From Oscillospiraceae bacterium (lineage in GTDB: Bacteria > Bacillota > Clostridia > Oscillospirales > Acutalibacteraceae): a DNA stretch of 64,000 bases. Location of the stretch: contig SVPW01000002.1 in the NCBI GenBank assembly GCA_015065645.1, positions 31,776-95,775 on the forward strand, in the 5' to 3' direction. Within the stretch, counting starts at the first letter, position 1. Each line of letters starts with the position of its first letter. Under the pieces are notes generated by a model. That model had not been told where the DNA came from and ran no database searches. It saw nothing but the letters and a program-made list of their open reading frames with translations. Shown in pieces: positions 21,223 through 56,648 of this stretch. The translations under genes and the position numbers were made by a program.

Positions 21223-21232
21223 TTCAAACACC

Positions 21233-25426: not shown

Positions 25427-30518
<5,092 letters not shown>

Positions 30519-30549
30519 AACTGTGACCCCTCCGATTATATCCACACAC

Positions 30550-32676: not shown

Positions 32677-32794
32677 AAGTGCAACCTCTGTTAAAAAATA
32701 TATGTAAAGCAATTTTAAAACTCAAACTGATTTACATATATTCTTTAACATCAGTTAGTGAGACACAAATGTGCCTCACTAACCAAACTAAAAA

Positions 32795-33859
32795 TTATTT
32801 TTGGAATATACGGATATAATCCATGCTGAAACTTTCAGAGAAAGAACCAACAAGCTCTCCCAAAATATCACCCGGTGTACTACCGTTATTATAGGTACCG
32901 TAATAATCAGTTGGTGCAGAAACACCCATTATCATATAGGTGGATTTATGGAAAGCCTCCCATTTTTCGGGATCGGAAGCAATATCCTGCTCAAGATATG
33001 CAACACCATCAAAATAGAATACTATTTTCTGTGCATCCCAATAAAGAGAAATTTCATGGAAAGAATCCGATAAGCTTTCTCCATTGGCTGGGGTTATAGT
33101 ATCACGCTTATCAATAGTGTCACCATGGTTTGTGTGATCGGTATAATTTACCCATGTATGAAGATTGGGAATTATCTGATCTGCGCCGAAGTTTTCAACA
33201 TAGTCAAACTCATTTACGCTGGCACCGTTATCATCAACAGTTCTTGACCAAAGTGTGCTGCAAGCACCGTTTTTGGTTGCAAGCTTTACTCTGGCAGTCA
33301 TAATACCATAGGTAAAGCTCTTTTTTGCATTGATCTTGGTTGCATAATAACCACCGTCGATCTTACCTGTTTTCATAACGAGCAAACCATCTTCAAGATA
33401 GTAGTTGTTACCCTCTTCATTAATTACGGAAACAGTTCCGTCCTGCCAACGTGAAGAATTTTCCACATCTATCCAGGGACCGCCGTATTTTTGACCGCTT
33501 AATACAGAGCCAAGATAATACGAGCTTGTTCTCTCATAATACGGACCCGGATTTGTAGTTTCGGTTACATACCATTTATCGGTATTAAGCTTTTCTGCAT
33601 TAAACTCATCTCCCCATACATAGGAATAGCCGTCAAGCAGATTCTTTTCACCGATATACCTACCCGAAAGCTCAAAGCCTGCGGGAATAAACTTATATTT
33701 TTCTAAAAATGTTATAAATTTGTTTACTGCAAATGCGGTTGCGTAATCGCTTCCCGCTTCGATGTAAAGGTTATCCTCATAAAGGAATATTTTATAGTCG
33801 GAAAGCCCATAAACATCACCCTTTATACCTGTAAGATTTTCCAATGCAGCATTTTTCAA
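32795..33859 (-). CDS. GH16 domain protein, 5'-truncated paralog of the 883-aa GH16 lipoprotein (possibly a pseudogene)
   Basis: Catalytic motif NEFDYVENFG (ExDxxE). There is only a TTG start and no signal peptide. Homology to the paralog continues upstream of that start. Confidence 0.6.
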   Translation of the reverse strand: MKNAALENLTGIKGDVYGLSDYKIFLYEDNLYIEAGSDYATAFAVNKFITFLEKYKFIPAGFELSGRYIGEKNLLDGYSYVWGDEFNAEKLNTDKWYVTETTNPGPYYERTSSYYLGSVLSGQKYGGPWIDVENSSRWQDGTVSVINEEGNNYYLEDGLLVMKTGKIDGGYYATKINAKKSFTYGIMTARVKLATKNGACSTLWSRTVDDNGASVNEFDYVENFGADQIIPNLHTWVNYTDHTNHGDTIDKRDTITPANGESLSDSFHEISLYWDAQKIVFYFDGVAYLEQDIASDPEKWEAFHKSTYMIMGVSAPTDYYGTYNNGSTPGDILGELVGSFSESFSMDYIRIFQK

Positions 33860-36330: not shown

Positions 36331-37239
36331 TTAGCCCGTGATACCAACACGGTCAATCGAACGGACAAATTTGCGCTGGAATATCATATACAGAACAAGT
36401 GGTATTACTATGTACATAAGGCAGGCCGCACTAACCAATGTTGAATACTCGGGCCATCCCTTATAAACACCAATTTGTTGCAGATATACAGTTAAGAAAT
36501 TCATCACCATTGAAAGCGGTGCATCTTCTGATAAGAAGCTGAGCGTTGCCAGGTGATACTCATTCCAATGCCACACGAAGGACAGCACCGAAACGGTAAC
36601 AAGCACCACGCTTGATGAAGGAAGAGCTATTTTAAAATAGGTTTTAACAGGTCCTGCACCGTCAATATAAGCTGCATCCTCAAGCTCCTTAGGAAGACCT
36701 ATAAAGAATTGCTGGTAAATAAATATCATCATACCGCTTCTGATTCCAACACCAAACAGTGACGGCAACCAATAAACAAACGGTGTGCTGAATATATGCA
36801 AATTCCTGAAATTCACCGACATTGAAAGGCTGTACATCTGTATAGGTATAAGAAGTGAAAGGATAAGAAGAAATGTAAATATCGGCTTTCCTTTAAACTT
36901 AAAGCGTGCAAAGCCGTAAGCGATAAAGGCACAAACAAAAACCTCTATCAAAGCACTTAAAACCTGTACCAAAAGTGTTTGCTTTAAAGCAGAACCAAAA
37001 TTCATTAGCTCATAAATATCACTGAAGCTTTTAAAGCTGTAGCTTACAGGCACCCATATATGCTCCATATCAAGCAAGGCATTTCTATCCTTAATGGCAG
37101 AAACGAACATATACAGCAGTGGATACAAAACTATGTAGCCCACAATGCACAAAAATGCAATTCTTGCTATTGATGATATAATGGAAGGTATTTTTTGGCG
37201 GACTAAATTGCCGTCAAACCGTACTTTGTTTTTCAGCAT
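36331..37239 (-). CDS. Carbohydrate ABC transporter permease (MalG/LplC-type)
   Basis: 302 aa, 6 TM, EAA-loop region LEDAAYIDGAG. Confidence 0.85.
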   Translation of the reverse strand: MLKNKVRFDGNLVRQKIPSIISSIARIAFLCIVGYIVLYPLLYMFVSAIKDRNALLDMEHIWVPVSYSFKSFSDIYELMNFGSALKQTLLVQVLSALIEVFVCAFIAYGFARFKFKGKPIFTFLLILSLLIPIQMYSLSMSVNFRNLHIFSTPFVYWLPSLFGVGIRSGMMIFIYQQFFIGLPKELEDAAYIDGAGPVKTYFKIALPSSSVVLVTVSVLSFVWHWNEYHLATLSFLSEDAPLSMVMNFLTVYLQQIGVYKGWPEYSTLVSAACLMYIVIPLVLYMIFQRKFVRSIDRVGITG

Positions 37240-37240
37240 A

Positions 37241-38137
37241 TTAACTCCACCTCTTTAAAAATACTTTGTTATAAAACAGCAATATCACAGCCATAATCAG
37301 TCCTATAATAAGGAAATAGAACCACAATGATGCCGAACCTCTGCCGTAATCAAGATTATTAAAGAAATTATATCCGTGAGATATTACTTCATTATTGCTC
37401 TTTGTAATATTTTCAACTATGGTGAAAACGATTACCAAGAACATTGTGCGTCCTAACATCGGCAATGTTATAAACCAAAACTCTTCCCATTTGGTTGCAC
37501 CTTCAACCTTTGAAACCTCATAAAGCAGGTCGGGAATTGACTGTAATCCTGCAATAAACAGAATTATCTGTATTCCGCTTTGCCATACAAGCATAAACAA
37601 ATTATCAAGTGCTACAGAAAGATAATTTTCAATGGCGGTTGGAAGATTAAGGGCTGTGAAAACCTCAGAAAAATCTATCATTCCAAATGAAACCGAATCA
37701 TTTACGGCAACCTCGGTAGCATTAGATGATGCCGCACCCAAATAAAGCTCCAAAACCGCACCGCTTGCAATAATTACAGGCATAAAGAAAAGGGATCTGA
37801 AAAACAATCTGCCACGGAATTTATTATTAAGCATTACAGCCAAGATAAGGCTTACCACCAAAATAAACGGAACAGAAATAAGCATATCTGTAATTGCCGC
37901 AATAAAATCATCAATATACTGGGTATCCTTAAACAGAATGTAATCAAAATTTTCCATTCCCAAAAATTTAGTTTTAACGCCGCCTGTTCCAATGGAAATT
38001 TGTGCAAAACTAAAATACGCCGATTGAATTATTGGTACAAGGAAGAAAAATATCATTCCCACTATCCAGGGAGAAAGAAATATAAAACCATAACGGGATT
38101 TTAATGTTTCAAGACCCTTTGGTTTGCGCTTTTTCAT
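37241..38137 (-). CDS. Sugar ABC transporter permease (MalF/LplB-type)
   Basis: 298 aa, multi-TM, EAA-loop region YEVSKVEGAT. Confidence 0.85.
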   Translation of the reverse strand: MKKRKPKGLETLKSRYGFIFLSPWIVGMIFFFLVPIIQSAYFSFAQISIGTGGVKTKFLGMENFDYILFKDTQYIDDFIAAITDMLISVPFILVVSLILAVMLNNKFRGRLFFRSLFFMPVIIASGAVLELYLGAASSNATEVAVNDSVSFGMIDFSEVFTALNLPTAIENYLSVALDNLFMLVWQSGIQIILFIAGLQSIPDLLYEVSKVEGATKWEEFWFITLPMLGRTMFLVIVFTIVENITKSNNEVISHGYNFFNNLDYGRGSASLWFYFLIIGLIMAVILLFYNKVFLKRWS

Positions 38138-40396
38138 TTACTCTCCCCTCCCTGTTATATAGCTTTTAGCTGAAACGGTACCGTAATCGGTTGTAATCTG
38201 TGTTTCACCGTAATTTACAACCGCATAAACACCGTTATCAAATTTTGTAACAGCCGCAGTATCACTTAAACGAATATATTCGGTAACGCACGCACCCTCA
38301 ATATCTTCAAGATAATCCTTAATACCGTTAATACTGCTTATAATATTATCCTTATTACCATCGAAATGTGAGCCGTAAATAAATGAATGTTCACTTGTTA
38401 CAAGCTCACTTTCAAAATTGTAATAAAGCGTGTATGATGGTGAAATACCGCTTTCGATACATCTTAATAATGCATCCTGCTTATCAACACAAAGGTTGAT
38501 TGAAACCGAACTCATTGGGCGGTAGCCCTTAAATACAAGCTGATAAAACGGAACATCATAGCTTGAAACAGAATGGTTTGATGAATAAAGCGGAACATCA
38601 CTGATATAATCGGAATTTACAGCCGCATAATCATTTGCGCTATTGCTTAATGTGTTATATCCGGATTTTGAAACTTCTTTATAAATGTTTGCAACATCCC
38701 GTGCCATATTTCCGCTTATATAATAATTTTGTTTACCGTAATCGGAATAAACGGCTTTTGAAAGTGTGGCATAGGAAACACCCGATAGCCCAAGCTCCTT
38801 ACTGCTTTGTATAACCTTTTCTGAAGCCTTAAATAGATTATCTCTTGATAAAACAAAGAATCTATCTTGATTTCTTCCCTTGCTCACATTATCAAAGCTG
38901 GAAAACTCAACCGTTTGACCGCCATGGTAAACTGCGGCAGAAGATTTTGAAAAGCCTGAACCCGATTCACTGAATGAAATCAAATCAAAATCCATAAAAG
39001 AATTGATTTTCTTACCATTAAGTGCCTTTATAAGTGATTTCATACCGTCTTCTCCGCCAAGCTTATCGGCAACGGTAAATCCGCCTGCAACCTCACCAAT
39101 ATCAATTCCGCTTTTTCCAAATCCCGAAAGCTGGATATTAATATCACTGCCAATATCGGCGGTAAGCTTTTCTGTCATAGAAAGCGCCTGAGCAGTTGTG
39201 GTGAGAGGAAAAAGCTTATCTGTGGGAACACCGATAATAAAATCAGGCTGAATCACAGCACCTATAAATTTGAAGGTGGCGGTCTTTTCATCTTCGCTTT
39301 TGGGGGTTAAGCCTGCATTTTTTATCAAATAATCACGGTAGCAATCAGCCATACCGTCAATATCGGCATCCTCACCCGAAAGCGGAAAATATTCCACTAT
39401 CATTGGTTTTGTTACAATGCCATCACTTAAAATTTTGAAAGCACCAAGCGTTGTGGTTGTAACAAAGTTTTCAGGGCGCTCAATATAACTGAAGCCTCTT
39501 ATCCTAAATTCCGGATATACGGTTGAATAACCTATATTTTGAGAACCTATATTCCAATTTAATGCTGCAGATTCCGCACCAGAAGTAATAACCGCAAATA
39601 TTGCGTTATCACCCTTTTTAGCACCGAAAACAGGCATATTAACCTGTTTTTCGGGATTGGACATTCCGTAAGACTGATAGGAAAGGTCCTTACCGTATAC
39701 ATATTTTTGACCTATAGAGCCAACCGAGCCCGAAACAAACGGTTTTATTACCGTGCCCGAACCATCAGGAATCAAAAAGAAACTGTTTTGTGCATCATTC
39801 TTCATTCCGCAAAGGAACGGTGCAATGGCAACAGAATGTATCTTATACTCTTCCCCTTCGGAAATTTTAGTGGGGTCAATAGCTATTTTGAATGAATTTT
39901 CTGTCAACACATAATAAACAGGAACCGAAAACTCATTCTCCATAAATTCATAGGTAACCTTTAAGCCGTTTTTGATTTTTTCGGCATATATTCCCCCGCT
40001 TTGAACAGCAGAGGTGTAAGAATATGCCTTAACATCATCAAAAGATTTGGGATCCTGATATATTACCTGAACAACAGAATCAATTTGAGGATGAACCTTT
40101 TTAATCATTCCGTTTTCCTGATACTCTATCACAGAAGCCTCCATTGGAATTTGGCCCCAAACATAACCGGTTTTCTTTTCTTCAAAGCTGACACGCTTAG
40201 TTGCATTATCCCATTTAAGAGCTAAATTTTCATTTTCAAAAACCACACCCGTGGTGCTGTAATTTCCTTCAAAATTCTGCTCAGAATAGGATAAAAAGGT
40301 TGTAACAGCAGCCTTTTCCTCACCGCATCCGCTAAGAGATAACACCAATGAAAGTACCATTAATACAGAAAGAAATCTTATTAAATATTTTTTCAT
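38138..40396 (-). CDS. Large lipoprotein of unknown function (possibly DUF5696-type)
   Basis: Lipobox LSLSGC. 752 aa. The stop abuts the next start with a 0-nt gap. I cannot place any motif in a characterised family. Confidence 0.6.
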   Translation of the reverse strand: MKKYLIRFLSVLMVLSLVLSLSGCGEEKAAVTTFLSYSEQNFEGNYSTTGVVFENENLALKWDNATKRVSFEEKKTGYVWGQIPMEASVIEYQENGMIKKVHPQIDSVVQVIYQDPKSFDDVKAYSYTSAVQSGGIYAEKIKNGLKVTYEFMENEFSVPVYYVLTENSFKIAIDPTKISEGEEYKIHSVAIAPFLCGMKNDAQNSFFLIPDGSGTVIKPFVSGSVGSIGQKYVYGKDLSYQSYGMSNPEKQVNMPVFGAKKGDNAIFAVITSGAESAALNWNIGSQNIGYSTVYPEFRIRGFSYIERPENFVTTTTLGAFKILSDGIVTKPMIVEYFPLSGEDADIDGMADCYRDYLIKNAGLTPKSEDEKTATFKFIGAVIQPDFIIGVPTDKLFPLTTTAQALSMTEKLTADIGSDINIQLSGFGKSGIDIGEVAGGFTVADKLGGEDGMKSLIKALNGKKINSFMDFDLISFSESGSGFSKSSAAVYHGGQTVEFSSFDNVSKGRNQDRFFVLSRDNLFKASEKVIQSSKELGLSGVSYATLSKAVYSDYGKQNYYISGNMARDVANIYKEVSKSGYNTLSNSANDYAAVNSDYISDVPLYSSNHSVSSYDVPFYQLVFKGYRPMSSVSINLCVDKQDALLRCIESGISPSYTLYYNFESELVTSEHSFIYGSHFDGNKDNIISSINGIKDYLEDIEGACVTEYIRLSDTAAVTKFDNGVYAVVNYGETQITTDYGTVSAKSYITGRGE

Positions 40397-40410
40397 ATAA
40401 ATTTCCTCCT

Positions 40411-42543
40411 TTAACGGTATTTAATCTCGGTGAATACTGTACCTATCCAACCGTAAACCTGCTGAGCAAGCATAAATACAAGGAAAATAAGGAACACGAT
40501 TATAAGCATTGCTATAACAGTAACAAATGTGGTTAAAAGGAATTTACCAAACTCAAAATCGTGAATTTTCATTATTCCCACTGCAATTATTATAAAGGTG
40601 TATGCTGTGCAGATAGTTTGGAATATGGTAACAAATACAAATTCATCGGGAGAAAGTATGTGTGAAAGACCAACACCGAAAATGGTTGCAAAAATGGTTG
40701 GTATTAAGCTATAACAGGCAACTATGTATATTTCTTTAAGCTTGCCTATACCGCCCATAAGCACGCAAACAAGCCAGTTTGCAATTACAAACAGTAAAAC
40801 CAATGCAACGGTTCTCAGCAGTACAAAGAAAGAGTTATAGCTTGAAGCATCAAATCGGTTAAAGGCATAACCTGATGCCACATCACTTACTGCGGCAGAA
40901 ATATAGAATAGTGCAAGTAAAACGGTAGCGCATACCACCGAACCCATATTCTTTTCTTTAACTAATCTGAAAGCTTCAAATGGATGGAATACACTTGAAA
41001 GCATATTCTTTACCTTATCGTTTTTGATAAGCACTATACCCTTTTTCTTCTTAAAGTGCAAAGCAATGAAAATTACCGCAATAATTATTAACAACCCTAA
41101 AAAGCCTACGGTAAACCATTCCTCTAAAAAGGCAGTTCTTAGCTTTACAAAGGCATTTGCATAGGTTTCTCTATCAGCACCAAGCTTTGAATACTCCAAT
41201 GCTTTGTCATATTCCCCCATGGTATAATAAGCCTTTGCAAGACCCCTATAAGCAAGCTGATTGTTAACATCGGTCTTTATAACCTCATTCCAAGTTTCTA
41301 CCGTTTGCTCAAAATCATCATTCAAGGTATCAATCTGAGCCAATCTTACTGTATTACCGTAATCGGTAATGGAATAAACGGTAATGTTTTTATTTACAGG
41401 GTCACTTACAATAACATCTGTTCCGTTTACCGCAATAGCTCCACCCAAAGCAACAGTTCCCTTTTGGCTTTGTGAGCCTGAATTTCCGCCAAAAACGCAG
41501 ATAAGATTGCTTTCCTCATCATACCAGAATATTCTATTCGAAAGGCCGCTTTCAAGAGCATAGAAAAAGCCATCCTTATCCACATCTATAGCTTTAAGGG
41601 ATTCGGGCTTAGCAAGCTTGGTGGCAATATCCGCAAAGTTATAATCCTCTTTACCAAGCACATCCTTACCACCGGGATTAAGCCTTTTTACCTGCCCTGT
41701 GGGAGTTTCCGTTCCACCTGTAGAGGTTACGGTATAAATAAAATCATTGGGTCCTACCACAAAATCGGTAAACTGATAAGGTAATGACCTTACCGATGCA
41801 GCTCTTTTTTCATCAGTAGAAAAAATGTTGTTAATAAAATTCTTTATTACATCCCCTACCGAAACCGCAACGGCATTTGCACCATAGAATCCTAAAAATT
41901 CCATTGTGGGAGAATAAACCAATGCTCCGTAATATGAACCGTCGCTTGAGATGTAAAGATAATCCCTTGAATCCACTGCAATTTTTTGCGGACTGTAATT
42001 AAAGTCTTTAGGTATCAGCTTGGATTCAGGCAAGGTAAGATAATGCAATACCTCACCTTTAATATTTATAACTAAAATTCTGGCATTTTTTGTATCAGCT
42101 ATATAAATTTTTTCATCCTTAACAAATATGCCCGAAGCCCCCACTATTGAAAGTGCTTCTCCGTTATAAATAATCTGATTTATTTCAACCTTTAGTTTAT
42201 AATTCTCATCAAGCACTAATACCTTATTTGATGTGCTGTCAAGAATATATGTATATCCGTTTGAGGCGCAAATATCATTAACACTTCCAAAAATAGCTGT
42301 GCCAAGTGTTGCACCGTCAATAACTGCTTGAGGCTTATACATAGGTTTACAATAAACCATTGTTTTGGTTTCGCTTCCCAAACCTTCCCAATAGGTATAG
42401 GTTGAAAACGAGGTCTCCTCCGTACCAACGGTAGATGTTTTGTATGAAGAGGCAGATACATTAGCGGAAAATACCGCACTCAAAAGTAATATCACCGCAA
42501 ACAGGAAAGCGAATAATTTAAAGCTTTTATTTTTTCTTAACAT
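40411..42543 (-). CDS. Signal peptide, six-bladed NHL-like beta-propeller, TPR-like segment and C-terminal Yip1-type polytopic membrane domain
   Basis: Six repeats of the pattern [IV]xxDxxxx[IF]Y[IV]xDxxNxx[IV] (e.g. GIFVKDEKIYIADTKNARILV). AYRGLAKAYYTMGEYDKALEY is TPR-like. The last ~240 aa contain 5-6 TM helices. Confidence 0.65.
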   Translation of the reverse strand: MLRKNKSFKLFAFLFAVILLLSAVFSANVSASSYKTSTVGTEETSFSTYTYWEGLGSETKTMVYCKPMYKPQAVIDGATLGTAIFGSVNDICASNGYTYILDSTSNKVLVLDENYKLKVEINQIIYNGEALSIVGASGIFVKDEKIYIADTKNARILVINIKGEVLHYLTLPESKLIPKDFNYSPQKIAVDSRDYLYISSDGSYYGALVYSPTMEFLGFYGANAVAVSVGDVIKNFINNIFSTDEKRAASVRSLPYQFTDFVVGPNDFIYTVTSTGGTETPTGQVKRLNPGGKDVLGKEDYNFADIATKLAKPESLKAIDVDKDGFFYALESGLSNRIFWYDEESNLICVFGGNSGSQSQKGTVALGGAIAVNGTDVIVSDPVNKNITVYSITDYGNTVRLAQIDTLNDDFEQTVETWNEVIKTDVNNQLAYRGLAKAYYTMGEYDKALEYSKLGADRETYANAFVKLRTAFLEEWFTVGFLGLLIIIAVIFIALHFKKKKGIVLIKNDKVKNMLSSVFHPFEAFRLVKEKNMGSVVCATVLLALFYISAAVSDVASGYAFNRFDASSYNSFFVLLRTVALVLLFVIANWLVCVLMGGIGKLKEIYIVACYSLIPTIFATIFGVGLSHILSPDEFVFVTIFQTICTAYTFIIIAVGIMKIHDFEFGKFLLTTFVTVIAMLIIVFLIFLVFMLAQQVYGWIGTVFTEIKYR

Positions 42544-42555
42544 ATCATCCGCCCC

Positions 42556-43455
42556 CTATCCCTTTATACCTGCACTACCCATTGTTTCTTTAATACTGCT
42601 TTGAGAAATTAAATAAACAAAAATGGGAGGTATCATCATAATTACGGTTGCTGCCATAGCCGCACCCGAACGTGCTATACCGCCGGAGCTTATTGTTGAC
42701 ATTACCGTAGGTAAGGTTTTTAAGGATTCATTGAATATAGTACCTGCAGGAATGGTTGCCCAAATGGACTGGAAAGCAAACAATACAAGGGTAAGCACGC
42801 AAGGCTTAACATTCGGGAATATAATACTCCAGAATATCCTCAAATAATTTGCACCGTCAATTTTAGATGCTTCAATCAGAGCATCGGGAATATATCCATC
42901 CATATACTGCTTCATAAGGAATACACCCATAGAAGAAGGTATAGCAGGCAAAATATAAACCCAATAGGAATCAATAATACCCATACCGTTATAAATAAGA
43001 TAACGAGGAATACTAAGTGTATAGGCATTAAACAAAAGCGATAACTGAATAATAAGAAATATAGTTTTCTTAAATTTCAAATCAATTTTTGAAAGCACAA
43101 ATGCCGCAGCAGTTGCCGCTAAAACATGCAACAGTGTACCTGCCACACTTATAAACAAGCTGTTTGTAACATAACGTGAAAGCGGAATATTAAGTCCCGA
43201 AATCAAATCAGGCAATGCCAAATAATTGTTAAATGTCGGTCTTTTTACCGTGAAAAGAGTTGGTGGAAAAACCAACAATTCATCAAGCGGCTTAAACGAA
43301 GTTGCCACACTGTAAACAAGCGGCAATACCGAAAAAGCACCAAACATAAACAGAAAAGCAAAAAATATAAAATTACCGAATTTAGAACGGGTATACTTAC
43401 GAACCGAACCCTCAGAACGCTGTGTGGACAGTTTTATTTTAAGTTTATTTTTCAT
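42556..43455 (-). CDS. Carbohydrate ABC transporter permease (MalG/LplC-type)
   Basis: 299 aa, EAA-loop region LIEASKIDGAN. Confidence 0.85.
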   Translation of the reverse strand: MKNKLKIKLSTQRSEGSVRKYTRSKFGNFIFFAFLFMFGAFSVLPLVYSVATSFKPLDELLVFPPTLFTVKRPTFNNYLALPDLISGLNIPLSRYVTNSLFISVAGTLLHVLAATAAAFVLSKIDLKFKKTIFLIIQLSLLFNAYTLSIPRYLIYNGMGIIDSYWVYILPAIPSSMGVFLMKQYMDGYIPDALIEASKIDGANYLRIFWSIIFPNVKPCVLTLVLFAFQSIWATIPAGTIFNESLKTLPTVMSTISSGGIARSGAAMAATVIMMIPPIFVYLISQSSIKETMGSAGIKG

Positions 43456-43456
43456 A

Positions 43457-44359
43457 TTACTGCCCCACCTTCTTCAATAACTTGACTATGAGTGTTCTTG
43501 TTCCGAACATCATAACAAAAAGCATTACCGAAAGTGCAGAAGCATAACCCATTTCGTATTTAACAGAACCTACATCCGTAAGATACGAAACAATAGTATC
43601 TGCTGCATAGCCAACAGTAGGATAGCCTGCAAGAGTGGTTATTATACTGCTTATAGAGAAGGCTGATGCTATCTGCATAACGGCGCTGAAAAGCAACATA
43701 TGCTGCATACCGGGCAAGGTTATATACCACAGCTCCTGCCAACGGTTTCTTATACCGTCAACCGCACCTGCTTCAAATAATTCAGGATTAATATTCTGCA
43801 AACCTGAAATATTTGCAAGGAATGATGTACCCATACTCATCCATAGCTGAATTATTACCACTATCGGAACTATAAGTGCTTCATCCGAAAACCACTGCTT
43901 TGGTGCTGTTATAAGACCCGCATCAAGCAAAAGACTGTTCATATAGCCGTAGCTATCGCTCGCAAAGATTATAGTCCAGACATAAAGTGCGTTTCCTACT
44001 AATGTTGGGACATAAAACATAAAGGAAAGCAATGTTCGCATTGCGGGTCTGAACTCATTTATCATCCAAGCCAAAACGAAAGAAAGTAAAAAACCTGCAG
44101 GGCCGGTTAAAATAGCCAAAACAAAGGTATTTTTCAGAATGGTTGGAAAAACATCATCCTGAATAATCATTCTTAAATAATTTTCAAGTCCTGCAAAGGA
44201 TGGCATTGATACCATATCAAAGTTAAAAAAGCTAAGTACAATAGAAGAAAGCACGGGCAATACCGTCATAAGAAAAAACAGCACTAAAAACGGTCCTATA
44301 AGCAGATAAATTTGTCCACGCTCTTTAATTACGGTCATTAATTTTTTCTTTTTCATCAT
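43457..44359 (-). CDS. Sugar ABC transporter permease (MalF/LplB-type)
   Basis: 300 aa, EAA-loop region LFEAGAVDGI. Confidence 0.85.
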   Translation of the reverse strand: MMKKKKLMTVIKERGQIYLLIGPFLVLFFLMTVLPVLSSIVLSFFNFDMVSMPSFAGLENYLRMIIQDDVFPTILKNTFVLAILTGPAGFLLSFVLAWMINEFRPAMRTLLSFMFYVPTLVGNALYVWTIIFASDSYGYMNSLLLDAGLITAPKQWFSDEALIVPIVVIIQLWMSMGTSFLANISGLQNINPELFEAGAVDGIRNRWQELWYITLPGMQHMLLFSAVMQIASAFSISSIITTLAGYPTVGYAADTIVSYLTDVGSVKYEMGYASALSVMLFVMMFGTRTLIVKLLKKVGQ

Positions 44360-44363
44360 AAAA

Positions 44364-47237
44364 TTAACCTCCGTAATTCTTATTAGCGTATTCTTTTATC
44401 TTACGCTGAATTTCTTTATCACTTGTAACCGACCAATCCATAATAGCTTCCTTAGCGGATTTTTTGCCGTTTTTAGTAGCCCAAAATGCTTGGTCTATAG
44501 AACGGGAAACATAATAGCTACCCGGAACTTCAGGAAGTTCTTTTACATTTTTCCATTGCTCTAAAATAACATCCAATGCCTCATCATCCCAAGAAAGACG
44601 GGATACTGCCTGCGGATTTGCAGAGCTTGTTCTGCCTGTTTCACCGATTATTGCCTCAACCTCTGCCGAATAACGGTACTGAGTATCAGCCGATACCCAC
44701 CACTTAACAAACTTCCAAGCGGCATCCTTTGCCTTACTTGATTTCATTATGGAAACGCCCGTACCTGAGCCTGCACAGGTATTATCTACCGTTCCGTCCT
44801 CCTTTAAAATACCGGGAATTGGTGCTATTGACCACTTACCCTGAATTTCGGGAGCACCAAGCTTTATTGTAAGATATTGGGTATAGCTTGCAATTCCCAA
44901 CGGTATTGTTCCCACACGGAATTTCTGATAAAAATTCGCATCCTGATCAAGGCTGTATTCGGTATAAAATTCTGTCCAGAATTTAAAAGCATCTATAGAT
45001 TCAGAGCTTGCAAGATTGGTTGCATTAAGCTCCTCATTATATACAGAAGCACCACGCTGCATAAGCATTGTGGGGAATATGGTAAGTCCTCCTGCCCCTA
45101 TATTTACCGTAAATGCCGCACCCAATTTTGTATACGGCAGATAGGTGTTCATCTTATTTCTCTGCAATATTCCTGTTACCGAAAGAAAGTCATCCCATGT
45201 TACGGGAACTTCAAGCTCTAAAGCCTTTAAAATATCTTTTCTATAAAACATTACAAAGAAATTTTGGGTATCAGGCAAAGCGTAGGTTCCGCCCTTATAC
45301 ATATAAGGAGCTTCTGCACCATCAAAGAAGTTATCCGCTAAAACCTTTTCATAATCATCAAATTCTTTAAGATTATAAAGCACCCCGCGCATTGCGAGGT
45401 TAACAGGCTCTGTTCTTGCCATATGTAGATATAAATCAGGTGAATTACCCGATATTACACCCTGAACCAAAGAAGCATTAACCTGCTCAACCGTTACATT
45501 TACATCATTATTAGGTGTAAAGCTATCCTGAATAAGGGAATTTAAAACCTTAACCTGATCTCTACCCCAGTTTACCCATATTTTTATTGAGGGTAGACTT
45601 TCATCATCACTACTGCTGATAGAAGAGGAATTTGTCATATATGAATCGGCATATCTCATAAGAAAGAATTTGAAGCCCTCAAAAAATCCTGCTTCGGGAG
45701 TTTTAAACTCCTTATCGGGAGCTGCCAAAATAATTTGGTCAACAGAAAGTGACATGTTTTTAATATCGTAAAGCCATGCACTTAATGTTTGCTGTGCGGA
45801 ATAAAAGCTTGATACCTGCAAATGTGCATCATAAACATTATCGGTCATTTCTTTTATAATGCGTGCCATATTTTTGAGTGCACCGTTAAGCTCACCGTTT
45901 ACTTTAAGATCAGTGCCAATATCTGCCATTAAAGCATTTATCTGATCATAGGAATCATTTAAAACCGCTTCAAAATCCGGGATTTGATTATGCAATTCAT
46001 AATCACGGTTTGCATCGGGATTTTCTCCCGTTATCATAACTATATCAAGATAAAGCTCACCTAAAGGACTTACTATTTGCTGAAGTCTGCCAAAAACCTC
46101 TGCAATATCAAAAAGAGTTACCGAAAGCGAAAGCTCATGCTCACCCTTTGTAAGATAAATGAGATAATCCTTATTTTTACCATCATTAAACTCCTTAAAC
46201 TGCCAATCGGTAGAATAAGGAAAGCTTATATTGCCCGCTTCTTCAAATGGGGTTTTACCGTCAATTTTAAGGAGGCGGTAAACCTCACCATCGGTAACAT
46301 AGCTTTGCTTAAAGGCTATACCAAGCTTATACAAACCATCCTTTGGAACATTTACCTTCCATGTAATTTCAGAACCTGTATTATTCCAGGTTGTTCCGCC
46401 TATATGATTAATAACGGAGTTTACAGCGCTTGACGGAGAAATATCCGCTGTGCTTTGATCGCTTTTTGCAGAAAGTGAATATGCGTTTTTATAGCAAGCA
46501 TTCTCACCCTCTATTACAATCTGTTCGCCATCATATTTCTCATAATTGCCATACTGCTTTGAAACCTCACTATAAGGCTTAACCTCATCAGGTGGAAGCA
46601 AGCTAACCTTTTCAAGCAAGAATTCCTTACCGCAAGATTCTATTCTTATGGTATGTTCACCTGCAGAAAGCATAAATTCATAAGGGATAAGCTCTATTCC
46701 CTCATCATCGGTTATCTTTTGAAAATAAAAGCCATCCTTATGCTTTTGAAGCGAGCATACCTGATCCCCGTTTGTAAGGGTTCTGATTTCACCCTCATCC
46801 TCCCACAAAGCTCTTAAAATAAGCTCTTCGCAGTCAGAAAACGGTGTTTCACCGTCTATTTTAAGGGAAAACTTATAATTTTCCGTTACATCATCCAAAG
46901 GTGAAAAGGAAAGTGCAATATTATAAGCGCCATCTTTGGGAACATTGAGTGAAAACTCAACGGCATCTCCTTTAGCCAACTTATAAGCTTCACCTTCTGA
47001 AAGATACTGTGAGCCCAAAATACACGACTGTGCGTTAAGCTCTATCATCTCCGCAGCCTTTTCAAAGTTTTTTTCCGATTTATAAAGGCGGTATTCACTG
47101 TTATACTCTACTTTTCCAAATGAAGCCGAGTAATCTTCATCATATTCATCAGAGGATATGCCGGAAATCACGGAATATAAAGAAAATATTAAAGCAAATG
47201 CCAATACATATACCGCAATTTTTTTAAACCTGCTCAT
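44364..47237 (-). CDS. Membrane-anchored giant solute-binding protein: two CBM-like modules, a helical linker and a family-1 SBP domain
   Basis: Start at the ATG preceded by AAGGAGG (MSRFKKIAVYVLAF, an N-terminal TM helix). Duplicated modules: GDAVEFSLNVPKDGAYNIALSF...LKIDGETPF and GSEITWKVNVPKDGLYKLGIAF...LKIDGKTPF. The C-terminal ~420 aa are SBP-like. Confidence 0.7.
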   Translation of the reverse strand: MSRFKKIAVYVLAFALIFSLYSVISGISSDEYDEDYSASFGKVEYNSEYRLYKSEKNFEKAAEMIELNAQSCILGSQYLSEGEAYKLAKGDAVEFSLNVPKDGAYNIALSFSPLDDVTENYKFSLKIDGETPFSDCEELILRALWEDEGEIRTLTNGDQVCSLQKHKDGFYFQKITDDEGIELIPYEFMLSAGEHTIRIESCGKEFLLEKVSLLPPDEVKPYSEVSKQYGNYEKYDGEQIVIEGENACYKNAYSLSAKSDQSTADISPSSAVNSVINHIGGTTWNNTGSEITWKVNVPKDGLYKLGIAFKQSYVTDGEVYRLLKIDGKTPFEEAGNISFPYSTDWQFKEFNDGKNKDYLIYLTKGEHELSLSVTLFDIAEVFGRLQQIVSPLGELYLDIVMITGENPDANRDYELHNQIPDFEAVLNDSYDQINALMADIGTDLKVNGELNGALKNMARIIKEMTDNVYDAHLQVSSFYSAQQTLSAWLYDIKNMSLSVDQIILAAPDKEFKTPEAGFFEGFKFFLMRYADSYMTNSSSISSSDDESLPSIKIWVNWGRDQVKVLNSLIQDSFTPNNDVNVTVEQVNASLVQGVISGNSPDLYLHMARTEPVNLAMRGVLYNLKEFDDYEKVLADNFFDGAEAPYMYKGGTYALPDTQNFFVMFYRKDILKALELEVPVTWDDFLSVTGILQRNKMNTYLPYTKLGAAFTVNIGAGGLTIFPTMLMQRGASVYNEELNATNLASSESIDAFKFWTEFYTEYSLDQDANFYQKFRVGTIPLGIASYTQYLTIKLGAPEIQGKWSIAPIPGILKEDGTVDNTCAGSGTGVSIMKSSKAKDAAWKFVKWWVSADTQYRYSAEVEAIIGETGRTSSANPQAVSRLSWDDEALDVILEQWKNVKELPEVPGSYYVSRSIDQAFWATKNGKKSAKEAIMDWSVTSDKEIQRKIKEYANKNYGG

Positions 47238-47267
47238 CCGATTTACCTCCTTATCCAAATGATCTAC

Positions 47268-47304
47268 CGATTTAATTCCAAGAAAAACTTGGAATTAAAT
47301 CGGA
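47268..47304. repeat. 16-bp perfect-stem hairpin between the GH16 and giant SBP genes
   Basis: ccgatttaattccaag aaaaa cttggaattaaatcgg. No U-run follows it on the transcribed (minus) strand. Confidence 0.85.
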
Positions 47305-47320
47305 AAACAATAAAAATCAC

Positions 47321-49972
47321 TTACTTTTTTGCCTTTAAGGAATACTGTCGTGAATTTATTTGATACAAACGAATATAGTCTATAAGCTGTTCTTCGTAAA
47401 AATCCTCTATGTTAACCTTACCGTCACCATTGGTATCAAACAGCTTTGCAGCTTCATTTGGAGCTACATTTCCTCCTGCAAGCCAATTTCCCGGAGCACG
47501 ACCGGCTGCATAGGTAGCAGAAGGTGCTGTATTATTGAAAATAACATAGGTGGTTTCCTCAAATGCATACCAAACATCACTTGTAATTTCCTGAGAAAGA
47601 TAAATTTCACCATCTAAATACATATTTATAAATTCAGGGGTCCACTCCAAAGCAAGATGATGGAATGTATCGCTGAAGGTTTCACCTGCAGCAGGCACAC
47701 AGGTTTCTCTTAAAGAAATCATTTTTCCGTGATCGGTATGAGTATCAGCCCATGTATGTAAATTTGGTCTTAATTTATCTTCACCAAAGTTCTCATAAAT
47801 ATCTATTTCATTTACAACACTGCCGCCATCCTTGGTTCTTGTCCAGAAGCAGGCCGCATTGCCGTTAGATGTAGATGCCATTATACGGGCTTCCAATATA
47901 CCGTAACGGAACTCCATTCGACCATCAGTACAAATAATATTTCCACTGTAACCATTAACCTCTTTTTTGGAAATCTGAACCAGCATATTATCCCTGATAA
48001 CAGAATTTGTACCTAAGTTCTTTATAGTTCCCTCTTGTACATAATTAGGATTGCTTGCCTGCACCCAAGGACCGCCAAAATCATTATTGGGGTCATCATC
48101 TTCAAGTGATGCCTTTGATGCAAGATAATACGGGTCATTTTTTGCATACCAGCAACCCTCATCCTCGGTATAACCCTTTTCCATTACCTTCCAATTCTTT
48201 TTGCTCATAGTAGTACCGGAAGATGAATAAAACTCATCACCCCAGGTATACGCATAATCATTAAGCAGTGTATATTCACCCTTATTATAGCTACCGCTTA
48301 AAACGGTGTTCTTATCAAATACTGCCACCTTATCAAGCTGAGTAATAAGCTTTGAAACAGCATGACTTGCAGCATAATCACTGCCTGCTTCCACAAAAAG
48401 CTTTGAGCCATCCACAAAGATATTGTAATCTTCATTATTATAGGTGTGCCCCCTCTTTCCCGTGAGGAAATCCAATGAGGAAGCTTTAAAGGTATCACCC
48501 GAAATTCCCGAGCGTGTGGTAAGACCAATCAATATCTCATTTGATGTGGTTACGGTATCCTTTTCGATTTTCAGGTTATAACCTGTTTTTTTAACCACAT
48601 ATTCCACAAGTGATTCGGCAGCCTTTACCGTCATAATAGAAGGATATTTTTCGGTTCTGATAGTATAAGCGGCAATATTGGTATCACCGATTATTATATT
48701 TGCAAGCTTAGGTCTTGAAACATATTTTAAATTTGCAGGAATACTATCCTTATCGGTTTTGCAGTAGTTTGCCATAAAGTAATCTACCGCCAATTTCAAG
48801 GAATAATCTGTATTTGCGGCAATAATAAGCTTTTTGCCATCCATACGAATAATAAAATCTGCACCGTTATTAGCACGGTAGGATGTAAGCTCTTTATATG
48901 CCTTTGCCGATTCCTTGCGGTTAGTAAGACCTATCAGAAGCTCGTACTCATTTTCAGCCAAAGTATCGTTATCAAAAAGAACATCCGCTTCAAAAACATC
49001 TACCATATGCTTGCGCAGTTTGGTAAATATCTGCTTTTGGGTAACGGTGGAATCGGTGGGATAAACGATTCTGAAGCGTGAATCATAACCATTCATAAGA
49101 GAAATAGGTTCATTTTTATTGCCCGAAGTATCGTTATCTTCATCATCGGTATCGGTTTCATCCTCTGATTGCTGGTCATCATCTTCATTAAGCTGTGCAT
49201 CAAGCTTCATGGTAATAAAGAACAAATCGCCCTCATTAACCTCAATATCGGGAATATCGGGATATTCAAGCTCGGTAACTGCAGTGCCGTCACCCGCTGT
49301 AGAATTACAAAATTCTCCCGACCACACTTCACGGGTATTTACAATAAACTTTATAACTGCACTTCTGTTAGTGCCATCCTCAGCCAAAAAGCCTGTTTTT
49401 ACACCGCCAACGCTTTTGATTGCAGTTATTTTACCCGAAGGTATGCCAATAGTTCCGCTTTCGGTAATTTGCAGGCAAAGGGCTTCCTCCTCTTTGCCCG
49501 ATACCGAAAGCAATATACCTGCCGCAGTAGGCTTTTCTCCTTGATAGGTGGTAAGCTTTGCCGCTTTTGTGGTATAAGGCATAATAGAAACAGTTCCGTC
49601 ATTCATGAATGAATATGCGCTTAGCTTATCGGTGGAAATATAACCGCCGTTACGCCATTTTTCAAGGCCGTATATGCCACGCTTTTTCCAATCTTCACCT
49701 GTTTTATATGCCCATAACCAATCGGTATCATCCGAAAGGGATGTGAGTGTTGCCGCCTTTTGGTCGGCACTCATTGCATTCTTTATATCGTTAAATGCAA
49801 TTTTATTATTGCCCTCTTCATAAGCCAAAATAGGATTCATTGCCACAACAAGCTGTGGCTTTCTCTCCTGCTTAGAAGTGGGATTTTTTACTACCTGCTT
49901 TGAACCGCAGCCTGAAAAGGCGGAAACGGTTAAAACAAGTATTAATATTAATGAAATTATTCTGTTTTTCAT
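47321..49972 (-). CDS. GH16 endo-glucanase/glycanase lipoprotein with a long N-terminal region
   Basis: Lipobox SAFSGC; acidic linker; two copies of an ILIGL...DGxKLxIxAxxDYxxxxAV domain; C-terminal GH16 domain with NEIDIYENFG (ExDxxE, beta-bulge type). Confidence 0.8.
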   Translation of the reverse strand: MKNRIISLILILVLTVSAFSGCGSKQVVKNPTSKQERKPQLVVAMNPILAYEEGNNKIAFNDIKNAMSADQKAATLTSLSDDTDWLWAYKTGEDWKKRGIYGLEKWRNGGYISTDKLSAYSFMNDGTVSIMPYTTKAAKLTTYQGEKPTAAGILLSVSGKEEEALCLQITESGTIGIPSGKITAIKSVGGVKTGFLAEDGTNRSAVIKFIVNTREVWSGEFCNSTAGDGTAVTELEYPDIPDIEVNEGDLFFITMKLDAQLNEDDDQQSEDETDTDDEDNDTSGNKNEPISLMNGYDSRFRIVYPTDSTVTQKQIFTKLRKHMVDVFEADVLFDNDTLAENEYELLIGLTNRKESAKAYKELTSYRANNGADFIIRMDGKKLIIAANTDYSLKLAVDYFMANYCKTDKDSIPANLKYVSRPKLANIIIGDTNIAAYTIRTEKYPSIMTVKAAESLVEYVVKKTGYNLKIEKDTVTTSNEILIGLTTRSGISGDTFKASSLDFLTGKRGHTYNNEDYNIFVDGSKLFVEAGSDYAASHAVSKLITQLDKVAVFDKNTVLSGSYNKGEYTLLNDYAYTWGDEFYSSSGTTMSKKNWKVMEKGYTEDEGCWYAKNDPYYLASKASLEDDDPNNDFGGPWVQASNPNYVQEGTIKNLGTNSVIRDNMLVQISKKEVNGYSGNIICTDGRMEFRYGILEARIMASTSNGNAACFWTRTKDGGSVVNEIDIYENFGEDKLRPNLHTWADTHTDHGKMISLRETCVPAAGETFSDTFHHLALEWTPEFINMYLDGEIYLSQEITSDVWYAFEETTYVIFNNTAPSATYAAGRAPGNWLAGGNVAPNEAAKLFDTNGDGKVNIEDFYEEQLIDYIRLYQINSRQYSLKAKK

Positions 49973-56343: not shown

Positions 56344-56648
56344 AATAAATTTTCCTTTCAATTTTATATTTTTTAAATTAAATTATGAGGATGATTACCC
56401 TCTGTATTCCAATATTTACAATTCAGTGTATTATGTCCTCTTAAACCTCTCCTTTGAAAATATTGCCAATAAACGCTTTGTATATTGCATCTATTCTGTA
56501 CATTATTACAACTATATTCTATCATAACTATAAAAACACAACAATTCAATTTTTTAAAATACAAATGCAATAAATTGTTTTTTATTTTTAAAAAATAGCG
56601 CAAACCAAGTTAAAATACACCATAAAAACCACCTTTTTCATAATTTGT

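Follow-up and report, generated by a model that had tools for sequence, protein, structure and literature searches.

The window analysed here, a stretch of 64,000 nucleotides, raises the question of why two complete pairs of sugar permeases should be encoded in one run of genes together with an outsized binding protein and two large envelope proteins. Seven open reading frames (ORFs) occupy positions 36331-47237, all on the minus strand and at the places given in an earlier sequence-only reading. The order of the module is giant binding protein, F1, G1, NHL/TPR/Yip1 protein, DUF5696 lipoprotein, F2 and G2, often followed by an ordinary binding protein (SBP2). Spacers derived from the ORF coordinates were 4, 1, 12, 14, 0 and 1 nt, bearing out the gaps of that reading and supporting its view of a tightly coupled seven-gene cassette, and no convincing promoter or terminator was seen in these tiny spacers. 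The non-permease parts are extracellular or membrane-located. In kind, this is a CUT1 ABC importer inside a Gram-positive glycan-utilisation locus. Its closest transporters are the CUT1 carbohydrate importers (TC 3.A.1.1; E. coli MalEFGK2, B. subtilis MsmEFG/MsmX and LplABC), with which it shares a binding protein of the SBP_bac_1/8 fold and MalF- and MalG-type permeases with EAA loops. As had been proposed, it departs from the standard binding protein-permease-permease layout: unlike CUT1 importers, it combines in one unit two permease pairs that diverged long ago, its first binding protein has a conserved extension of ~550 aa at the N-terminus (CBM-like modules and a TM anchor), and obligatory NHL-Yip1 and DUF5696 genes lie between the permease pairs.

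All seven genes were found in the same order and orientation in 74 of the 84 loci fetched from Oscillospirales MAGs, which often hold 2-4 copies per genome; the remaining 10 loci were cut by contig ends. Median gaps over the 74 loci were 11, 4, 11, 14, -1 and 1 nt, and a second copy is present in the same MAG as the window. The module was also detected, with its order unchanged, in cultured Paenibacillus cellulosilyticus (Bacilli) and Butyrivibrio fibrisolvens (Lachnospirales), and across the Oscillospirales loci and these two genomes every gene was closest to its positional counterpart. The expectation of comparable unannotated arrangements in other Firmicutes proved strikingly right, conservation beyond the source genome being found in the 74 loci and both cultured genomes, and the hosts include many gut, rumen and soil Firmicutes. 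Some copies, such as L003 and L004, are flanked purely by housekeeping genes, and from copies such as these the module is a self-contained unit. Among 72,556 plasmids, the NHL-Yip1 and DUF5696 proteins both occurred only in the same two records, where they are adjacent. The distance matrices of the seven proteins correlate (r=0.73-0.89), indicating that they diverge together and share a common history, and sequence comparison points to a module that is ancient within the Bacillota and strictly ordered.

The first gene (44364..47237, minus strand) encodes a giant membrane-anchored solute-binding protein of 957 aa with a Pfam SBP_bac_1/8 match at residues 573-865. An anchoring TM segment at the N-terminus is followed by two beta-sandwich modules resembling CBM35/Golvesin-C, a helical region that is conserved, and a CUT1 binding domain (about 558-950), whose top PDB match was Lin1841 (E=2.5e-14). 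Pfam matches to CBM_35 and Golvesin_C were weak, as were those of the N-terminal profile to the CBM35 structures 2w47 and 2vzp. The protein has a single hydrophobic segment (14-32) and no lipobox Cys. The start previously chosen (ATG 47237), with AAGGAGG 7 nt upstream, was upheld as the better one; the TTG at 47258 listed by the ORF tool overlaps this ribosome-binding site. The first importer follows on the same strand with F1 (MalF/UgpA-type, 43457..44359; BPD_transp_1 38.8 bits) and G1 (MalG/UgpE-type, 42556..43455; BPD_transp_1 38 bits and a UgpE model match), and the second consists of F2 (MalF/UgpA-type, 37241..38137; BPD_transp_1 20.5 bits, with UgpA and MalF models) and G2 (MalG/UgpE-type, 36331..37239; BPD_transp_1 49.9 bits and a UgpE model match), likewise on the minus strand. 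The BPD_transp_1 match exceeds the Pfam cut-off in F1, G1 and G2 and falls below it in F2 (20.5 vs 26.4 bits). The F2 EAA loop (E207...G213...P226) is conserved at 100%, the E, A, D, G and P positions of the F1 loop (E196-G202...P216) at 98-100%, and the loops of G1 and G2 are also conserved; all four permeases thus have intact ATPase-docking loops and are predicted, by motif, to be functional.

No ABC ATPase was found among ORFs of at least 150 aa in the 11-58 kb part of the window, nor were ATPase genes found in the 84 loci. The absence noted by the sequence-only reading therefore stands for this region, while its unusual character does not, the Paenibacillus copy having a ugpC-type ATPase directly upstream of the module. 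Often, CUT1 systems in Firmicutes draw on a shared MsmK-type ATPase whose gene lies elsewhere.

The same reading held that the second permease pair has no binding protein of its own, a claim that was not borne out. An ordinary binding protein of 444-536 aa directly follows G2 in 36 of the loci examined (about half), and a homologue lies directly after G2 in the second copy of the same MAG. In the window, the lipoprotein SBP2 (54913..56361, minus strand; about 476-482 aa, SBP_bac_1/8, lipobox VAGC) lies 8 kb upstream of the module in the same gene string, and SBP2 diverges along with the module (r=0.82-0.88); it is likely the F2/G2 partner, shifted upstream at this locus. No second binding protein was present within 8-10 kb on either side in copies such as L003 and L004, so F2G2 may be served differently there.

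Of the two envelope proteins between the permease pairs, the first (40411..42543, minus strand; 710 aa) has a Pfam Yip1 match of 49.2 bits at 517-685. After a signal peptide come a six-bladed NHL beta-propeller outside the cell (about 49-392), helices of TPR type (394-454), a single TM helix and a Yip1 domain of five helices (about 517-710), and hydropathy gave a signal and six TM segments. In the AF2 model (pLDDT 78), the propeller matched the NHL domains of TRIM71, Thin and TRIM2 by Foldseek (target-normalised TM-score 0.70-0.76); Pfam, model and Foldseek agree with the original NHL, TPR and Yip1 calls. Butyrivibrio has separate NHL and YIP1 genes instead of the single fused protein.

The second envelope protein is a 752-aa lipoprotein (38138..40396, minus strand; lipobox LSGC, Cys24) matching DUF5696 (PF18952, 423 bits) and no other Pfam family at E up to 0.01; no mention of DUF5696 was found in any paper of the searchable literature. 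A profile search of the PDB matched 5opq (E=6.6e-8), and with the AF2 model (pLDDT 89.8, pTM 0.89) Foldseek returned 5opq (E=7e-34), NagBb (about 1e-28) and then GH101. The model thus predicts a three-domain glycosidase fold of the GH129/GH101 type, the closest folds being GH129 NagBb (alpha-N-acetylgalactosaminidase), DagB/ZGAL_3152 (3,6-anhydro-D-galactosidase, 5opq) and GH101 endo-alpha-N-acetylgalactosaminidases (E-values from 7e-34 to 1e-19), all sharing the succession of beta-sandwich, (beta/alpha)8 barrel and beta-sandwich. Identity is only 13-15%, and, unlike these enzymes, DUF5696 is always membrane-tethered and always encoded between the Yip1 gene and a permease pair. The lipoprotein had been read as a stand-in for a binding protein; its modelled fold argues instead for an enzyme-like protein.

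Enzymes surround the cassette. Upstream lies a GH16 surface lipoprotein (47321..49972, minus strand; Pfam GH16 at 665-792, lipobox FSGC) with a C-terminal laminarinase-like GH16 domain after an N-terminal stretch of about 650 aa without domain assignment. It matched laminarinases and beta-1,3-glucanases in the PDB (E=2.6e-11), GH16-type neighbours occur in 49 related loci, and it is likely an endo-acting enzyme feeding the module. A perfect 16-bp hairpin (47267..47303, minus strand; RNAfold -27 kcal/mol) lies between its stop codon and the ribosome-binding site that precedes the giant binding protein, and at the same site hairpins from seven related loci retain the distal stem while the proximal stem is changed in a compensatory way. 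Downstream, Pfam matches defined a block at 25427..33859 (minus strand) of a further GH16 (GH16b, 32795-33859, with PDB matches to laminarinases), a GH3 (30550-32712), a metallo-beta-lactamase/ComEC-like protein (28284-30545) and a GH2 (25427-28279). None of these four proteins has an N-terminal hydrophobic segment or signal peptide, unlike nearby surface proteins, which carry signal peptides or lipoboxes; they are likely cytoplasmic finishers of imported oligosaccharides. Enzyme families beside the copies of the module include GH16, GH3, GH2, GH10, GH1, GH13, GH78, GH36, GH42, GH28, GH30 and GH43, and the regulators are AraC or LuxR, with AraC divergently upstream in 20 loci and a LuxR-type regulator upstream in this locus and L003.

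A composite envelope machine feeding two importers, as first hypothesised, fits this evidence, and we consider it probable on balance that the module is the transport core of Gram-positive glycan-utilisation loci, working by the following uptake mechanism. Surface enzymes, here the GH16 lipoprotein, would cut the polymer, and the CBM-like modules of the giant binding protein would hold the chains and pass oligosaccharides to the conserved importer F1G1. DUF5696, as a membrane-tethered GH129/GH101-related glycosidase, would trim or debranch oligosaccharides at the membrane, its products entering via the variable importer F2G2 with the help of SBP2. The NHL-TPR-Yip1 protein may act as a membrane scaffold keeping the outer parts together, one shared MsmK/UgpC-type ATPase encoded elsewhere would power both importers, and cytoplasmic GH16, GH3 and GH2 would finish the breakdown. 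The known GH129/GH101 enzymes act on alpha-linked galacto-type sugars, a specificity that does not obviously fit the beta-glucan context of GH16 and GH3 and so counts against this explanation.

The catalytic role given to DUF5696 also bears on a doubtful though plausible alternative, in which DUF5696 is not an enzyme but a glycosidase-fold protein that has turned into a subunit of the F2G2 importer, with a substrate-capturing or ancillary role. Inactive GH13-like ectodomains of this sort occur in 4F2hc and rBAT on amino-acid transporters, and the idea is close to the earlier remark that the lipoprotein sits where a binding protein would be. In its favour, the F2 start codon directly abuts the DUF5696 stop here, and the two touch or overlap at practically all loci (median gap -1 nt, <=16 nt in 74/74); DUF5696 is also kept whichever enzymes flank the module, and roughly every second locus lacks a second binding protein beside G2, although many copies, this one included, do have a co-diverging ordinary binding protein. 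GH13-type barrels carry Glu and Asp after strands beta-5 and beta-7, positions taken in DUF5696 by the invariant Asn N588 and N634 in a mapping that rests only on predicted secondary structure. Neither D600 nor D614 survives in Paenibacillus and Butyrivibrio, where D237, K260, N588 and N634 are kept, and the alignment holds no second conserved barrel carboxylate, so that catalysis is putative. Unlike GH129/GH101, DUF5696 thus has no conserved barrel Glu/Asp for the acid/base role; however, this residue is not conserved between families of the superfamily anyway (PMC5698469). Speaking for an enzyme, exactly one barrel Asp (D552, invariant in 83/83 homologues and across both Oscillospirales and Paenibacillus) and one Asp of the N-domain (D237, 82/83) are retained, matching the kind of residues needed for activity in DagB, whose catalytic candidates include barrel Asp486 and N-terminal-domain Asp202, only the barrel Asp being common to DagB and NagBb (PMC5698469). 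By interpolation between matched stretches only, D552 falls at about the sequence position of DagB Asp486 and NagBb Asp435, and the conserved N-domain Asp is as in DagB.

A second difficulty for the proposed uptake mechanism lies in the unequal conservation of the parts. Median pairwise identity between copies was 63% for F1, 61% for G1, 54% for the binding domain of the giant protein, 48% for G2, 47% for F2, 42% for NHL-Yip1, 34% for DUF5696 and 30% for SBP2, a ranking repeated in Paenibacillus and Butyrivibrio; by this measure the first importer is far more conserved than the second importer, DUF5696 and the second binding protein. With no more than about 23-25% identity between F1 and F2, the two pairs are ancient paralogues. 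The binding domain is 52-69% identical among copies beside GH10, GH13, GH28, GH36, GH42, GH78 or GH16, which is odd for a nutrient-specific binding protein and counts against the favoured explanation. Together with the AraC and LuxR-type regulators, this gradient would suit a substrate-independent role for the giant binding protein and F1G1, as a glycan sensor reporting to those regulators or an ATP-driven engine acting on the extracellular assembly, with only F2G2 and SBP2 carrying specific sugars. We consider this improbable. The binding domain folds like any CUT1 sugar-binding protein, and the permeases, whose EAA loops are intact, are typical type I importer subunits. Nearby enzymes need not reflect what the module takes up, and a common product, e.g. 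a shared di- or trisaccharide, would account for the conservation more simply. That two ordinary sugar ABC systems came to lie beside two unrelated envelope genes by chance, or in this genome alone, is scarcely credible even though every part alone belongs to a common family, being refuted by synteny that is identical in order, orientation and close spacing across 74 loci of many species, shared in order with two other orders/classes of Bacillota, and made up of co-diverging genes closest to their positional counterparts.

Two known systems resemble the transport core proposed here. In B. subtilis YknWXYZ, a Yip1-domain membrane protein is likewise encoded inside an ABC transporter operon; YknYZ, however, belongs to the MacB/FtsX-type exporters, has a membrane-fusion protein and protects against SDP toxin (PMC4887032), whereas the partners in the module are type I importers and its Yip1 protein has a large NHL propeller and TPR ectodomain. 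As in Bacteroidota SusC/SusD and 'Gram-positive PULs', a transport core recurs, with several diverged copies to a genome, each joined to a different glycoside hydrolase set and regulator. Unlike SusC/SusD, the module works without an outer membrane or TonB-dependent transporter, its core being two ABC importers and two uncharacterised proteins, and no mention of a core marker of this kind was found in searchable papers. The cassette represents a single copy of an old module with a rigid gene order that has apparently gone unstudied, a Firmicutes unit that joins two sugar importers, an enzyme-like surface protein and a propeller-bearing membrane protein, and that probably serves as a core for taking up complex carbohydrates.

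ORF calls placed seven genes at the positions claimed by the sequence-only reading, all on the minus strand. In transcription order, they encode a giant binding protein (44364-47237, 957 aa), the MalF- and MalG-type permeases of a first importer (F1, 43457-44359, 300 aa; G1, 42556-43455, 299 aa), an NHL/TPR/Yip1 protein (40411-42543, 710 aa), a DUF5696 lipoprotein (38138-40396, 752 aa), and permeases of the same two types belonging to a second importer (F2, 37241-38137, 298 aa; G2, 36331-37239, 302 aa). The spacers of 4, 1, 12, 14, 0, and 1 nt were reproduced, and the domain calls made from sequence agreed with Pfam and NCBIfam results. For the first gene, the ORF tool chose TTG 47258 as the start; since AAGGAGG is located 7 nt upstream of ATG 47237, the start given in the sequence-only reading, the 957-aa form is correct. 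A promoter/terminator consensus scan yielded no interpretable signal within the cassette.

In the first contexts examined, DUF5696 homologues (31-42% identity) occurred in the same seven-gene order, and two of these loci were flanked by housekeeping genes alone. Scanning a single genome for each species yielded 287 relatives, from which the best 80 loci were fetched; ORFs were called in each locus and assigned by BLASTP. The seven genes were complete, on one strand and in the same order at 74 of 84 loci, the other ten being cut by contig ends. Together with modules in Paenibacillus cellulosilyticus and Butyrivibrio fibrisolvens, this bears out the earlier expectation that similar arrangements exist in other Firmicutes. 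Throughout the fetched loci, the best BLASTP match of each module gene was the window gene at the same position, and each gene of both cultured carriers likewise best matched its positional counterpart. The gap between the DUF5696 and F2 genes had a median of -1 nt and a maximum of 16 nt, with the other spacers similarly tiny. Among the best 80 loci of the 287, at least two loci each came from 14 genomes, five of which contributed three or four, and a second module copy was found in the metagenome-assembled genome (MAG) of the window itself.

The cultured copies were recovered by tblastn against 72,556 plasmids, where the DUF5696 protein and the NHL-Yip1 protein occurred in the same two records only, and adjacently. 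Both modules are carried on large non-mobilizable plasmids of 509 kb and 243 kb (L085, NZ_CP054609.1, and L086, NZ_CP146964.1, respectively), a location that may be a sampling effect since the annotated collection searched consisted of plasmids. The Butyrivibrio module is preceded by a GH43 gene and followed by two binding proteins; in Paenibacillus, several LLM-class flavin oxidoreductases and additional binding proteins take the place of glycoside hydrolases on the flanks of the module. RefSeq gene names for both copies are generic only.

The cassette lies within a 34-kb single-strand gene string running from 57883 down to 24160 on the minus strand, in which a transporter, glycoside hydrolases and a regulator are combined as in Gram-positive polysaccharide-utilization loci. 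First in the order of transcription is a LuxR-type regulator (56696-57883), followed by an ordinary lipoprotein binding protein, here termed SBP2 (54913-56361), then by a surface protein of 1612 aa that carries Listeria-Bacteroides repeats (49988-54826), and, directly before the cassette, by an 883-aa GH16 lipoprotein (47321-49972). Downstream of the cassette are a 752-aa secreted protein and then enzymes without signal peptides, namely a cytoplasmic 354-aa GH16 (32795-33859), a GH3, a 753-aa metallo-beta-lactamase-like protein (28284-30545), and a GH2, with an AXE1-type (CE7-type) esterase ending the string near 24160. Both GH16 domains are distantly laminarinase-like according to PDB matches (36-45 bits). 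The cytoplasmic location of an endo-type GH16 suggests that oligosaccharides are imported, not monosaccharides, and the neighboring glycoside hydrolases suggest that the module may transport sugars or oligosaccharides in the manner of CUT1 importers.

Several further features of the string were observed. A perfect 16-bp hairpin (CCGATTTAATTCCAAG / CTTGGAATTAAATCGG; 47267-47303, minus strand) lies between the GH16 stop codon and the ribosome-binding site that precedes the giant binding protein gene. A hairpin occupies the same site in seven related loci, with a conserved distal stem and a proximal stem that varies with compensatory changes; its U-run is weak or absent. Since there is no space for a promoter 3' of this hairpin, the upstream GH16 gene and the cassette probably share a transcript, and the hairpin may be an attenuator or an mRNA processing/stability element. 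Neither Pfam nor the PDB gave a match for the roughly 650 N-terminal residues of the GH16 lipoprotein. A short motif (…F.…G.KL.IEAGSDYA…) was seen by eye to repeat in this region and in the N-terminus of the 354-aa GH16, and the region may represent an undescribed domain linked to GH16. The metallo-beta-lactamase and ComEC-like matches of the cytoplasmic 753-aa protein are weak, and this protein is kept downstream of the module in the closest relatives (L005, L008, L011, L012, L024). Huge surface proteins (about 830-1900 aa) with Flg_new (Listeria-Bacteroides) repeats and a C-terminal transmembrane anchor recur beside the module, in the window and in L030, L033-L035, L066, L076, L080, and L087, often directly after the second binding protein, and may be glycan-binding or adhesion partners. 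Beyond the string, a 691-aa aspartyl-tRNA synthetase-like protein with a C-terminal GatC domain (21233-23308) precedes genes for a GatA-like amidase and GatB (20038-21231 and 18610-20034), and looks like an AspRS-GatC fusion in a transamidosome operon.

The lipoprotein of the cassette is a full-length member of Pfam DUF5696 (PF18952; 423.2 bits against 25.6, model positions 5-612 of 612), a family represented by 5,746 clusters (50% identity) when its profile was searched against 1.84 billion representative proteins. Its AF2 model (pLDDT 89.8, pTM 0.89) has a (beta/alpha)8 barrel between two beta-sandwich domains, one at each terminus. By Foldseek, the model matched 5opq and 5wzn (TM-score normalized to the target, TMt, 0.71-0.77; E 7e-34 to 1e-26), the best matches being the GH129-like 3,6-anhydro-D-galactosidase DagB (5opq, E=7e-34) and the GH129 alpha-N-acetylgalactosaminidase NagBb, followed by GH101 and then GH31, GH36, and GH97. 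The earlier reading had noted that this lipoprotein sits at the place of a binding protein; a binding-protein substitute is rejected by its GH129/GH101-like fold. At the sequence level, the DUF5696 profile recovered 5opq from the PDB (E=6.6e-8) through three weak stretches outside the catalytic center. A Pfam search with E up to 0.01 returned DUF5696 alone, with no GH129 membership, and a profile of the barrel (residues 405-700) recovered no GH129 structure from the PDB, giving marginal GH13 'region I' matches alone (E=0.03). A homologue search with a 151-aa 5opq fragment, taken from the HMMER alignment for profile-profile alignment, found no match; catalytic residues were consequently mapped by interpolation and predicted secondary structure only.

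By this mapping, D552 follows the predicted fourth barrel strand and would fall, by interpolation between matched stretches, at about the place of the nucleophile Asp of NagBb (D435) and DagB (D486). It is invariant in all 83 homologues as well as in Paenibacillus and Butyrivibrio. D237, K260, Y353, R354, N588, N634, and N728 are near-invariant among the 83 and persist in both cultured carriers, where D469, D471, D600, and D614 are not retained. DagB is reported to need Asp486, Glu517, and Glu531 for activity, together with Asp202, which the partner monomer contributes through its N-terminal domain, and NagBb and DagB share the barrel Asp only (PMC5698469). The candidate general acid/base carboxylates are E478 in NagBb and E517, E531, or D202 in DagB; the conserved D237 of the N-terminal domain may correspond to DagB D202. 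DUF5696 would thus keep the shared barrel Asp and an N-domain Asp without a second barrel carboxylate, none being universally kept among the 83 homologues, Paenibacillus and Butyrivibrio, where N588 is invariant. In a less probable rival explanation, DUF5696 would have no catalytic activity and would serve F2G2 as an ancillary or substrate-capturing subunit; the lack of a universal second barrel carboxylate speaks for it, and the invariant D552 against it. Modeling and conservation together suggest that DUF5696 is probably a glycosidase of a new family.

The giant binding protein matched SBP_bac_1/SBP_bac_8 at 77-80 bits (cut-off 26-27), and SBP2 matched the same families at 53 bits. The former consists of one N-terminal transmembrane helix, two modules with weak CBM35/Golvesin-C likeness, a well-conserved helical region, and a normal CUT1 binding domain that matched sugar-binding proteins in the PDB; no lipobox was found in it. 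In one lineage (L001/L002, 3140-5962) two genes encode it, one for the N-terminal part (508 aa) and one for the binding domain (388 aa), and Butyrivibrio likewise encodes NHL and Yip1 in separate genes, suggesting that these large proteins are modular and able to work as separate chains. F1, G1, and G2 scored above the Pfam cut-off for BPD_transp_1. F2 fell below the gathering threshold (20.5 against 26.4 bits) and was matched by UgpA and MalF models; its Pfam match is likewise absent or weak in precomputed annotations of related contigs, so automatic pipelines may miss that the module has four permeases. The EAA ATPase-docking loop is conserved in all four (73-80 homologues). No ABC ATPase gene was present among the scanned ORFs at 11-58 kb of the window, and no MalK/MsmK-type ATPase among ORFs of the 84 related loci. 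The absence had been read as an anomaly, which does not hold given the ugpC-type ATPase directly preceding the Paenibacillus copy, and the ATPase for the window copy is expected to be supplied from elsewhere in the genome.

Similarly, the second permease pair had been thought to lack a canonical binding protein next to it. An SBP2 homologue of 444-536 aa follows G2 in 36 of the examined loci, and also in the second module copy of the window's MAG, and SBP2 co-diverges with the module (r=0.82-0.88), indicating that this pair is not an orphan. In L003 and L004, no second binding protein was found within 8-10 kb on either side.

The two importers are unevenly conserved. For pairs of copies with DUF5696 proteins less than 50% identical, median pairwise identity was 63% for F1, 61% for G1, 54% for the giant protein's binding domain, 48% for G2, 47% for F2, 42% for the NHL-Yip1 protein, 34% for DUF5696, and 30% for SBP2, the fastest-evolving part. 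The same ranking was observed in both cultured carriers. Furthermore, the giant protein's binding domain is 52-69% identical to that of the window whether it lies beside GH10, GH13, GH28, GH36, GH42, GH78, or GH16, and this steadiness suggests that the first importer is substrate-independent. An unlikely second rival would make the first importer a sensor or engine and not a nutrient importer; its CUT1 binding domain and EAA loops are those of an importer. To judge by divergence, specificity seems to reside in the other half, made up of the second importer, SBP2, and DUF5696.

The NHL/TPR/Yip1 protein comprises, according to its model and a fold search, a signal peptide, a six-bladed NHL propeller, TPR-like helices, one transmembrane helix, and the Yip1 helices. 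Yip1 (PF04893) matched residues 517-685 at 49.2 bits against 28.6, and its five membrane helices are visible in both the model and the hydropathy profile. By Foldseek, the propeller resembles the NHL domains of TRIM71, Thin, and TRIM2 (TMt 0.70-0.76, E ~1e-11). Pfam NHL is on record for most homologues, and the Butyrivibrio gene is named 'NHL repeat-containing protein' in RefSeq.

Synteny, folds, topology signals, EAA loops, and enzyme neighborhoods were observed for the module. Its best-supported interpretation is a glycan-uptake core in which two importers would work with a membrane-tethered glycosidase and a scaffold protein; what it takes up or cleaves, which parts touch, and in which sequence they act are inferred. 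A shared ATPase, encoded at another site, would energize both importers, and locus-specific surface enzymes would feed the core. The module would work like a CUT1 ABC importer, and partly is one, within a Gram-positive glycan-utilization locus. A bolder and rather unlikely version unites all seven proteins in one supercomplex, a Gram-positive counterpart of the SusCD 'utilisome' of Bacteroidota, in which a substrate-independent, ATP-driven giant-binding-protein/F1G1 importer would be joined through an NHL-TPR-Yip1 hub to a membrane-bound DUF5696 glycosidase of a new family, passing its products directly to the specificity-bearing F2G2/SBP2; if so, long-glycan hydrolysis and import would be mechanically coupled at the membrane. 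Distance-matrix partial correlations give only weak hints on contacts (SBP-G1 0.48, SBP-Yip1 0.42, Yip1-DUF5696 0.40), and no conclusion is based on them. The module differs from YknWXYZ, which has a MacB/FtsX-type permease, an ATPase, and a membrane-fusion protein beside Yip1, whereas the module's Yip1 gene is flanked by BPD_transp_1 permeases only, with no gene for FtsX, HlyD, or an ATPase among the ORFs scanned. Recent duplication of one permease pair was ruled out, as F1 and F2 are only about 23-25% identical, which suggests an old module, and the pairs are already distinct in Bacilli. Chance juxtaposition of the cassette genes is excluded by the synteny data.

The module arrangement is not described in the literature searched, although journals outside it may differ, and that literature contains no mention of DUF5696 or PF18952. 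Four features appear undescribed: a seven-gene core that is obligatory, the extension of the binding protein, the association of importers with a Yip1-propeller protein, and the GH129/GH101-like character of DUF5696. Oscillospirales (Acutalibacteraceae, Ruminococcaceae, Oscillospiraceae) are abundant, mostly uncultured fiber degraders of human and animal guts, and to our knowledge little is known of their glycan uptake. Owing to its strict order, several copies per genome, and ties to many glycoside hydrolase families, the module could mark and delimit glycan-utilization loci in Firmicutes, as susC/susD do in Bacteroidota. Because B. fibrisolvens D1 (plasmid pNP243) and P. cellulosilyticus KACC 14175 are in culture, the question can be approached by experiment. 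The poorly understood bacterial Yip1 proteins gain a concrete setting, and the large DUF5696 family gains a testable role and may constitute a novel family of glycoside hydrolases with GH129/GH101 as relatives.
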